Source: Candidatus Kapaibacterium sp. (lineage in GTDB: Bacteria > Bacteroidota > Ignavibacteria > Kapaibacteriales > UBA2268). From it: 64,000 nucleotides of DNA. A program made the translations under genes and the position numbers. Below the pieces are notes generated by a model. That model searched no databases, was not told where the DNA came from, and worked only from the letters and a program-made list of their open reading frames with translations. The stretch covers positions 3,424,001 through 3,488,000 of the forward strand of contig OY762428.1 in the NCBI GenBank assembly GCA_963665665.1, given 5' to 3'. Below are positions 25,321 through 27,176 of the stretch, one piece after another (positions within the stretch are counted from its first letter, which is position 1; every line of letters starts with the position of its first letter).

Positions 25321-26778
25321 ATGGAAATGCAGCTTTTTAACTCGCTTAGCAAAAATAAAGAAGATTTTAAACCCATTGATGGTAATAAGGTCAGGATGTA
25401 TTCCTGTGGCCCGACTGTTTATAATTATGCACATATAGGCAATATGAGGGCCTTCCTATTTGCAGACCTGATGCAGAGAGTACTACGGGTAGTCGGGAAT
25501 TATGATTTACAATGGGTAATGAATATAACAAATATCGACGATAAAACTATCCGCGACAGCGCTGTTGGAAGTGATGTCTGGATTGAAGACATGGGACAAC
25601 AAAAAGATGACCCTATGGCAAACCTCAAAATGCTGACAAATTATTATGAGAAGTCCTTTCTGGACGATATTTCAAAGCTTGGAATTAATCCCGATGATTT
25701 TAACGCTATGCCGCGTGCTACTGATTATATTGAACAAATGCAGAACCTGATAAGAAAAATATTTGAAAACGGTTTTGCCTATGTTTCCGAAGGATCAGTT
25801 TATTTTAACGTGGATAAATGGAGCAAGGCCGATACTTATGGGAAACTGCATAAAATAGATTTCGATAATTTCCGGGCAGGTGTTAGAATTGATGCCGACC
25901 AGTATGAACGCGAGCAGGTTTCAGATTTTGTTCTCTGGAAAGCAAAGAAAGACGGCGAGCCTTTCTGGGAATTTGAGATAGACGGCCACAACTGCCCCGG
26001 ACGCCCGGGTTGGCATATTGAATGTTCCGCAATGGAATATGATATTCTAGGAGTGCCTTTTGATATACACACCGGCGGCATCGACCTGAAATTCCCTCAT
26101 CACGAGGATGAAATTGCACAGAGTAAGGCAGGATACAATGTTGAGCCAACTGCATTCTGGTGCCATAATGAATTCCTGGAAGTTGAAGGCGAAAAAATGA
26201 GTAAATCCAAAGGCAACTTTTTTACTCTACGCGATTTGCTGGACAAAGGAATTGATCCGTTGGATATTCGTTTTGCCATGCAGTCACAACATTATGCAAC
26301 TACTTATAATTTTACCTTCGACGGCATTAGCGCTGCTCATAAGGGGCGCTTCAGGGTGCAGGAATATATATATGAGCTTTTTAACGAAGCTCCTGCCGAA
26401 GGAAAAGCAGTTGACGTTGAGAAGCTGAAATCAGACGTTTATAAAGAACTGGCAAATGACCTTCATACACCGAAAGCATTGGCAGTGCTATTCACTTTTA
26501 TAAACAATAACAACGCTAAGGAACTAAATACCGAAAGCCGTGAAAAGCTGAAAGGCTTTTTTACAGAGCTAAACAAAGTTTTTGCTATATGGGAAATATC
26601 TGAGAAAAAAGAAGTAAAAGCAGATTATCCGGCGGAAGTTCTTGAATGGGCGGAACAACGAATCGCAGCCCGTAAAGATAAAAATTGGGCTGAAGCTGAT
26701 AAGCTCAGAGATTTGATAAAAGAAGCAGGATATGTTGTAAAAGATACAAAAGGCGGATTCGAGCTGGAAAAGATATGA
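25321..26778 (+). CDS. cysS: Cysteine--tRNA ligase
   Basis: [36 protein letters not shown]. Confidence 0.98.
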
Positions 26779-27176
26779 TTAGAAAAAACGTAAAACTTTT
26801 AGCCGTAGTGGCAATGATATCTATTCTGTCAGCTTCATCGGCATTTTCGATGCAGATATTTGTAAAGACTTTGACTGGAAAAACGATTACACTGGACGTT
26901 GAAGCAAGCGACAGTATTGAAAATGTAAAAGCAAAAATTCAGGACAAAGAAGGAATTCCGCCGGACCAGCAAAGACTGATATTTGCAGGCAAACAACTTG
27001 AAGACGGCAGAACATTGTCTGATTATAATATTATGAAAGAATCAACACTATACTTGGTACTGCGGCTTCGGCCACCAATCTCCGAACCGGTTCCGACACT
27101 TCCTGAATGGGGAGGTATAATATTGGGCCTGGCTCTTCTTCTATCAGCATCATATTTTACTTACAGGAAATTTTAA
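26775..27176 (+). CDS. Secreted eukaryotic-type ubiquitin with IPTL-CTERM-like sorting tail
   Basis: 25-aa signal peptide ending AFS; ubiquitin [11 protein letters not shown]...LVLRLRPP at 26850-27077; tail VPTLPEWG + TM helix + RKF. Confidence 0.92.

Follow-up and report, generated by a model that had tools for sequence, protein, structure and literature searches.

How a nearly unaltered eukaryotic ubiquitin comes to be encoded in a bacterial genome, behind an export signal and ahead of a membrane-sorting tail, and what its product would do, are the questions raised by a 64,000-nucleotide (nt) stretch of DNA from Candidatus Kapaibacterium sp. (assembly GCA_963665665.1, contig OY762428.1, positions 3,424,001 to 3,488,000; hereafter the window). 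The open reading frame (ORF) concerned (26775..27176, plus strand) encodes 133 amino acids (aa) followed by a stop codon. An earlier reading of the DNA letters (the original prediction) had described it as a signal peptide, ubiquitin beginning at Met1 and a tail resembling the IPTL-CTERM sorting signal; all of these parts, and a short linker before the tail, are found in the translation. The account favored here, held with slightly more belief than doubt, is that this genuine bacterial gene specifies a near-authentic ubiquitin that would be exported and sorted to the envelope or surface by an exosortase as a look-alike that cannot be conjugated, probably for mimicry.

The ubiquitin gene, its product and its origin

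The ubiquitin domain (26850..27077, plus strand; 76 codons), delimited by its Pfam match and by alignment to human ubiquitin, is recognized by PF00240 at 103.2 bits (E 6.1e-30; cut-off 25.4) over residues 28-99 of the window protein. It is identical to solved human polyubiquitin chains at 69 of 74 positions, the exceptions being E16D, P19A, T22S, Q62M, and H68Y, and its residues 75-76 are PP, not GG, with 32 more residues following; the count of seven differences in 76 positions given by the original prediction is thereby reproduced as five plus PP for GG. Also confirmed from the translation is the retention of all seven lysines (K6, K11, K27, K29, K33, K48, and K63), of S65, and of the patch formed by L8, I44, and V70; H68Y and Q62M adjoin the I44 patch, and there is no Cys among the 133 residues. 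Upstream of the domain lies a putative Sec/signal peptidase I (SPase I)-type signal peptide of 25 aa (26775..26849, plus strand), assigned, like the helix of the tail, from composition and homologues. In it, MIRKNVK is followed by a hydrophobic core of 13 residues and then by SSAFS, which puts A at −3 and S at −1, and Cys is absent; the predicted cleavage, between SSAFS and MQIF, falls immediately before ubiquitin Met1, a layout shared by 53 homologous bacterial ORFs (see below). Downstream, a linker, ISEP (27078..27089, plus strand), in a region that is variable among the aligned homologues, leads into an IPTL-CTERM-like sorting tail (27090..27173, plus strand) made up of VPTLPEWG, a hydrophobic helix and YRKF, and identified by its motif and by a profile of the genome's own tails. 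Because GG is replaced by PP, the window ubiquitin cannot be activated or conjugated. The genome holds this one ubiquitin copy, and it has no match to PF00179, PF00443, or PF02338 (E2, UCH, and OTU, respectively), families for which 14 control genomes were equally silent.

The ORF is a genuine bacterial gene. The window genome is a single contig of 5,458,198 bp (completeness 99.48%, contamination 0.81%), and the gene resembles its surroundings in composition: GC is 0.396 and GC at third codon positions 0.33, compared with 0.398 ± 0.043 and 0.375 ± 0.066 for 1,823 long ORFs of the genome, and a value like the codon adaptation index is 0.75 (genome mean 0.737), at the 43rd percentile of the long ORFs. 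Continuity between the ubiquitin ORF and the cysteinyl-tRNA synthetase gene upstream, cysS, which had been named beforehand as a point on which the original prediction might fall, was found in public data from two studies: in one, runs X1 and X2 (a single sample) have a contig of 10,270 nt that spans 25300-27322 with 0 differences; in the other, a contig of 973 nt (X4) spans 26350-27322 with 6 differences, of which the sole one listed within the ubiquitin ORF, 27104 T>G, is read as synonymous in the codon for Pro110. With the junction covered independently in both studies, a chimeric join is excluded.

Selection on the domain was assessed by codon comparison (Nei-Gojobori, NG86) of the window ubiquitin with 66 other copies. 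Nucleotide identity was 0.60-0.77, dN was 0.05-0.25, and dS was undefined (saturated) in all 66 comparisons; the protein is nevertheless 80-97% identical despite the saturated synonymous sites, which, together with the low dN, indicates that it has been kept nearly constant over a long divergence. The best amino-acid match, at 72 of 74 positions, is a polyubiquitin of eukaryote type with four repeats, encoded on a contig of 4 kb (L031); it has D16, A19, and S22 in common with the window ubiquitin. D16 and S22 are commoner in copies with a signal peptide (36/53 and 30/53) than in others (5/29 and 3/29). A protein tree of 90 ubiquitin cores, in which 0 of 73 branches were starred, neither separated a single from a multiple origin nor identified a donor. 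The window copy shares with eukaryotic ubiquitin its lysines, S65, L8, I44, and V70, and differs from it in its predicted Sec export, its occurrence as a single copy outside any polyubiquitin or ribosomal fusion, and its PP end. A foreign, eukaryote-type origin is supported by the single copy, by the eukaryote-type best match, and by the rarity of the gene: of 130 genomes from its bacterial family, 5 have a ubiquitin-domain match, the window genome included. The horizontal acquisition originally proposed is upheld to this extent; the ameliorated composition and saturated synonymous sites imply that it was not recent.

The surroundings of the gene are in keeping with a bacterial transcription unit. 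The sequence ATGA contains both the TGA stop codon of cysS (25321..26778, plus strand; Pfam tRNA-synt_1e, 307.7 bits) and the overlapping start codon of the ubiquitin ORF, an arrangement suggestive of co-transcription or translational coupling. Directly 3' of the ubiquitin stop codon, RNA folding places a hairpin with a U-run resembling an intrinsic terminator (27181..27228, plus strand), with a 12-bp stem, a free energy of −21.3 kcal/mol and a z-score of −6.26; none of 200 shuffled sequences was equally stable. A consensus promoter and terminator scan did not list this hairpin, in our explanation because its loop is longer than the 8-nt limit of that scan; the same scan returned 13 promoter-like sites, compared with 9.1 ± 2.5 in shuffled sequences. 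Rfam gave no match within 27100-32000, and a search of a phage collection gave none.

Several features of the neighborhood deserve mention in their own right. The interval from the ubiquitin terminator to the next gene, with the first 100 nt of that gene (27244-27567), is a repeated element with 13 more partial copies in the window genome at 77-95% identity, and short-read contigs break there. The ORFs at 27463-28743 and 13647-14924 encode WD40-like beta-propeller proteins with tails of the type IX secretion system (T9SS); they are paralogues, 52% identical. On the minus strand, an ORF of 304 aa (29483-30397) with no Pfam, NCBIfam, or PADLOC match has 56-60% GC in a genome of 38.6% GC and looks like a foreign gene; upstream of it lie about 600 bp (30400-31000) of 17-22% GC.

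The sorting tail and its candidate exosortase

The tail of the window protein belongs to the genome's own class of IPTL tails. IPTLxEW[GA] followed by a helix and basic residues is also the ending of 10 other ORFs in the genome, and the cut-off of TIGR04174 (IPTL-CTERM) is passed at 8 other places, so that the additional IPTL-CTERM proteins sought in this genome are indeed present. A tail profile built from those 10 ORFs was run over the full set of 54,699 stop-to-stop ORFs and gave the ubiquitin ORF 28.3 bits (E 3.7e-6), a score that ranked 11th overall and first among matches outside the training set, with the ORFs ranked next at 20.6 and 17.3 bits. VPTLPEWG is the same as the genome's IPTLPEWG at 7 of 8 positions. 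What had been called an IPTL-CTERM-like tail is thus borne out in motif, helix, basic end, and own-genome profile score, and not by TIGR04174, whose cut-off it misses (see below).

The enzyme predicted to act on such a tail is represented by an XrtH-like exosortase of 185 aa (G000:C1:~5272876-5273436, minus strand). It passes the general exosortase/archaeosortase signature TIGR04178 (48.2-50.2 bits; cut-off 23), and its best subfamily model is that of XrtH, TIGR04177, those of XrtX and XrtF giving 64.5 and 53.0 bits; the expectation of an exosortase in the genome was therefore correct at the level of the superfamily signature and fell short at the XrtH model (75.1 bits; cut-off 86). The window protein and genome are like other IPTL-CTERM/XrtH systems in combining an [IV]PTLxEWG motif, helix, and basic end with over-cut-off tails elsewhere in the genome and an XrtH-like enzyme, and unlike them in the scores of tail and enzyme, both below the curated thresholds, and in having a eukaryotic ubiquitin for cargo. 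The genome also holds a second sorting system (L002, G000:C1:1576279-1579569), in which the gene for exosortase N (XrtN; 294.9 bits, cut-off 200) comes immediately 3' of that for a VIT/vWA-type protein whose C-terminus is VPEPEEW, a helix and YRKFFA, and is followed by that for an extracytoplasmic function (ECF) sigma factor.

The pairing of IPTL-CTERM tails with XrtH (TIGR04174 with TIGR04177), which we take from the descriptions of these models, finds its support here in co-occurrence. Among the 130 family genomes, an XrtH-like match was found in 43 (1 over the cut-off) and an IPTL tail over the cut-off in 37; both were present in 35, the tail only in 2 (genomes 76% and 86% complete), the XrtH-like gene only in 8, and neither in 85, a table that, given the kinship of the genomes, is not a statistical test. 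In five genomes (G003, G006, G056, G082, and G091) an IPTL tail lies <400 bp from the XrtH-like gene, and XrtH was found in 0 of 14 control genomes. The association extends to the ubiquitin genes: an XrtH-like gene is present in 4/4 family genomes with a gene for a tailed ubiquitin and absent from the one with a tailless ubiquitin (G014), and in other phyla XrtH accompanies tailed ubiquitins in 4/5 genomes (180.4, 129.2, and 93.4 bits, all over the cut-off, and 85.6 bits). One of these is Cocleimonas flava, in which a match to XrtH of ~180 bits occurs together with a protein composed of signal peptide, ubiquitin and a SIPTLSLWG tail. In the alignment of 8 ubiquitin-tail proteins from five lineages, P107 and W112 of the tail are invariant.

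The relatives within the family show both constancy and variation of this architecture. G022 encodes a signal peptide, a diverged ubiquitin (45%) and an AIPTLPLW tail; G093 has two tandem copies ending in SIPTLPTWG and a helix, one of whose tails, at 27.8 bits, is over the TIGR04174 cut-off; the copy in G005 has a similar tail and is broken by in-frame TAA codons and Ns; and G014 encodes a signal peptide and ubiquitin (76%) followed by an extra domain of ~120 aa, with no tail. The interrupted copy (L005, G005:C359) comes from an 81%-complete metagenome-assembled genome (MAG), and it represents a pseudogene or else a fault of assembly. Two adjacent small genes (L016, G236:C8), from a different family of the phylum sample that includes the window genome, encode signal peptide-ubiquitin proteins of 97 and 96 aa that end in PCN and PCP and resemble the type with a C-terminal cysteine known from BfUbb, the secreted ubiquitin of Bacteroides fragilis discussed below.

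Exported ubiquitins in other bacteria

Exported ubiquitin is widespread in bacteria, and the window architecture is no one-off. Scanning a single genome from each species yielded at least 327 stretches encoding a relative, of which the best 80 loci, with 83 ubiquitin ORFs, were kept. Under a relaxed start rule, 53 of the 83 ORFs have a hydrophobic pre-sequence abutting Met1, 29 lack one, and 1 is cut by the contig end. The 51 loci that hold these 53 ORFs, together with a locus at which the contig start cuts the pre-sequence (L029), fall in 13 named phyla; among the carriers are the cultured strains Dyella humi, D. jejuensis, Dyella sp. OK004, Cohnella sp. OV330, Arcobacter sp. 15-2, Cocleimonas flava DSM 24830, Methylolobus aquaticus, and Clostridiales bacterium NK3B98.

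What follows the ubiquitin domain differs among these ORFs. Short tails of proline motif, helix, and basic residues occur in 8 ORFs at 7 loci (L019, L020, L029, L039 with two copies, L051, L079, and L098). Three of four candidate signal peptide-ubiquitin ORFs scanned with Pfam contain an autotransporter beta-domain, and single cases have a T9SS sorting domain, three S-layer homology (SLH) domains, or NHL repeats with an S-layer domain; in some autotransporters, with an extension of ~310 residues, ubiquitin is the sole passenger. Six ORFs stop directly after the ubiquitin domain. No more than 9 of the 53 ORFs with a signal peptide retain GG, compared with 24 of the 29 others. An annotated example is a 246-aa 'ubiquitin family protein' of Ruminococcus albus 7 (megaplasmid pRUMAL01, 387760-388500; L099), with 67% identity over query residues 1-107; annotation pipelines thus already give such genes this name. 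Its setting is a run of small hypothetical genes on a mobilizable megaplasmid, with a dockerin protein and a transposase nearby.

The ORFs without a signal peptide are of another kind. Seventeen of these 29 lie on contigs <1.5 kb and are read here as eukaryotic contamination. Contigs of 300-1,240 bp in many assemblies, several of them from cultured strains, carry eukaryote-type polyubiquitin or ubiquitin-ribosomal fusions that lack a signal peptide (L048, L049, L057, L060, L061, L064, L067, L074-L076, L078, L082, L083, L086, L089, L093, and L094) and are read in the same way. Two further loci represent additional non-canonical prokaryotic ubiquitin architectures: an Acidimicrobiales MAG (L097) has two tandem ORFs fusing ubiquitin to ~150 aa, with no recognizable signal peptide, and in an archaeal MAG (L059) a longer archaeal ORF encloses a ubiquitin domain.

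Protein collections added little to this census. The window protein is a singleton cluster, and a word-index search with its residues 85-133 returned the query itself only (2 candidates). A profile of the 8 ubiquitin-tail proteins gave 58,255 matches among 1.84 billion representatives, the best 150 of which are proteins of 326-2275 aa with 4-23 matched stretches, read as polyubiquitin-type, so that nothing was learned from them about the tail architecture; in a word-index search with the same profile, 8000 of 8000 candidates were scored, and the best 120 are 211-249 aa long, the named ones being polyubiquitin or ubiquitin. An exact look-up of 7 relatives gave no match, some of these queries being end-trimmed or differently started.

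The secreted bacterial ubiquitins found in print are BfUbb and, added in 2024 (PMC11467351), BoUbb of B. ovatus (PMC3352274, PMC5705921, PMC6194340, PMC11467351). Both are like the window protein in being eukaryote-derived and in having lost the GG, and their export, by an SPase I signal abutting Met1, is of the kind predicted for it (PMC3352274, PMC5705921, PMC11467351). They differ from it in several respects. As the original prediction correctly had it, BfUbb, which also lacks GG, is the more diverged, at 63% identity to human ubiquitin compared with 93% for the window protein; it is a free, soluble toxin of 76 aa with a terminal Cys, whereas the window protein has no Cys and continues from PP into a linker and an exosortase-type tail; and it is encoded in a low-GC island, unlike the compositionally ameliorated window gene. 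No description of a bacterial ubiquitin with an exosortase tail, autotransporter, or other surface anchor was found in the literature searched, a search that lay outside the supplementary homologue lists of PMC11467351; that study collected the top 100 bacterial homologues of BfUbb from NCBI nr, and these may already include some of the present proteins. Exported bacterial ubiquitin is known from BfUbb and BoUbb, and the surface-anchored forms far closer to the eukaryotic protein were not found described, as far as searched. The suggestion that the architecture was undescribed accordingly stands for the literature searched, and its apparent uniqueness does not.

Proposed route and role, and the competing explanations

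In the route proposed for the window protein, the gene would be co-transcribed with cysS and end at its own terminator. Sec export and cleavage by SPase I would then expose Met1, a step for which experiment exists for BfUbb, whose signal processing was demonstrated (PMC3352274). The C-terminal tail would retain the protein in the inner membrane until the short XrtH-like exosortase recognizes it and cuts at or near the motif, whereupon the ubiquitin domain would move on to the surface or matrix of the cell; this step is suggested by co-occurrence, by the adjacency of the genes, and by parallels in other exosortase and archaeosortase systems. PEP-CTERM proteins are reported to be taken to the cell exterior by exosortases (PMC12188702), and the PEP-CTERM and PGF-CTERM signals are tripartite C-terminal signals cut by a polytopic membrane enzyme (PMC12188702, bioRxiv 10.1101/2023.06.07.544157); the window tail has the same tripartite form and differs from the PEP-CTERM/exosortase and PGF-CTERM/archaeosortase systems in its motif and enzyme subfamily. 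A closer precedent is mela_00855 of Methylomirabilis lanthanidiphila, identified as an S-layer protein and carrying a signal peptide and a predicted IPTL-CTERM (PMC8671808); its passenger of 312 aa is unrelated to the window ubiquitin, and the role of its tail is likewise a prediction. The product of this route would be a displayed, ubiquitin-shaped binding surface and no conjugatable modifier, as the PP end and the lack of E2, UCH, and OTU matches (from which the controls are likewise free) suggest. Surface display is supported by the fusions of ubiquitin to autotransporter, T9SS, SLH, and S-layer domains. Since the same conserved domain is found on autotransporter, T9SS, SLH, and exosortase anchors in unrelated bacteria, mimicry directed at ubiquitin-recognizing proteins of eukaryotes (grazers or hosts) appears the most likely role.

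A number of observations weigh against this account. TIGR04174 gives the window tail 12.4 bits when the protein is searched and 13.9 bits when the genome is searched in six frames, compared with a cut-off of 20.5; the motif begins with V instead of I, and the helix holds an unusual SAS. The exosortase likewise misses the TIGR04177 threshold by the margin given above, the midcut-by-XrtH family has no match in the window genome (nor in the controls), and in the literature searched no demonstration was found of the chemistry or end product of XrtH. The surface location of the window protein is suggested by analogy. The ubiquitins of G022 and G093 have diverged to ~45% identity, from which it follows that exact mimicry is not needed everywhere. 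Eukaryotic ubiquitin-binding proteins are cytosolic, and their meeting with ubiquitin on a bacterial surface is hard to picture. Finally, BfUbb, the only bacterial ubiquitin reported as tested, acts on bacteria and not on eukaryotes (PMC5705921, PMC11467351).

This last point leads to the explanation that the window protein is, like BfUbb, an interbacterial weapon, its ubiquitin being freed by processing of the tail, entering competitors, and blocking a periplasmic target. Among bacterial ubiquitins, BfUbb and BoUbb alone are reported to have had their function tested, being secreted, devoid of GG, imported through SusCD and targeted to a peptidyl-prolyl isomerase (PMC5705921, PMC11467351); small BfUbb-like copies occur in the window genome's GTDB phylum sample (G236); and the locus recalls that of B. 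fragilis, in which a housekeeping gene, ubb, a 52-bp repeat, and divergent beta-propeller genes are described, the window having a housekeeping gene, ubiquitin, a repeated element, and a divergent beta-propeller gene. The window protein, however, lacks the C-terminal Cys for which a covalent bond was proposed in BfUbb (PMC3352274) and bears a membrane-sorting tail in place of a free 76-aa product, no immunity or target gene is evident beside the ORF, and, BfUbb being active at 63% identity, antagonism leaves the 93% conservation of the window ubiquitin unexplained; we regard this explanation as unlikely. Conservation also bears on the proposal, to which we give a small but real chance, that ubiquitin serves as a generic stable cap or adhesin module, used only as a small N-terminal domain that folds fast and resists proteases, with no ubiquitin-specific partner. 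Such a use would fit the N-terminal position of ubiquitin in many unrelated large surface proteins and its drift to ~45% identity in some lineages; it fits poorly with proteins in which ubiquitin is the sole passenger, as in the window protein and in the autotransporters with ~310-residue extensions, and the fold alone would not hold 80-97% identity, seven lysines, and the hydrophobic patch where synonymous sites are saturated.

The remaining explanations concern the tail and the gene itself. If the tail were a transmembrane helix only, ubiquitin would be tethered at the periplasmic face of the inner membrane, as the failure of both tail and exosortase to reach curated cut-offs would allow; against such a plain anchor, which seems rather improbable, stand the 7/8 agreement of the motif with the genome's own tails, the invariance of P107 and W112 in five lineages, the co-occurrence of the tail with XrtH, and the copy in G093 whose IPTL tail exceeds the cut-off. 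Eukaryotic contamination or a chimeric assembly join has a precedent in the short eukaryote-type polyubiquitin contigs of many bacterial assemblies (17 of <1.5 kb among the best 80 loci). It was rejected on the strength of the independent contigs of two studies that span cysS and the ubiquitin gene, and its probability is close to nil: the gene lies on a single 5.46-Mb contig with host-like codon use, a signal peptide and a tail of these kinds are characteristic of bacteria, and the same architecture recurs in relatives within the family.

Sorting and display of a near-authentic ubiquitin as a mimic is thus the preferred account of the window gene, and it bears on two further matters. The exported ubiquitins described here are far nearer to the eukaryotic protein than BfUbb and BoUbb, come from at least 13 phyla, culturable strains among them, and are joined to several surface anchors, which raises the question of why free-living bacteria would keep a near-perfect ubiquitin outside the cell. 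The window protein raises in addition the question of what the poorly studied XrtH/IPTL-CTERM pathway does with its cargo, for which ubiquitin, given the excellent antibodies to it, is a ready-made reporter of exosortase sorting. A broader and more tentative proposal, which we think possible and less probable than its contrary, is that display of nearly unaltered ubiquitin is a widespread, cross-phylum mimicry directed at grazers, hosts, or their viruses, in which the window protein would represent the exosortase-H route. If this were true, a single signal peptide-ubiquitin module, exact to Met1, would have been coupled to several anchoring routes under purifying selection.

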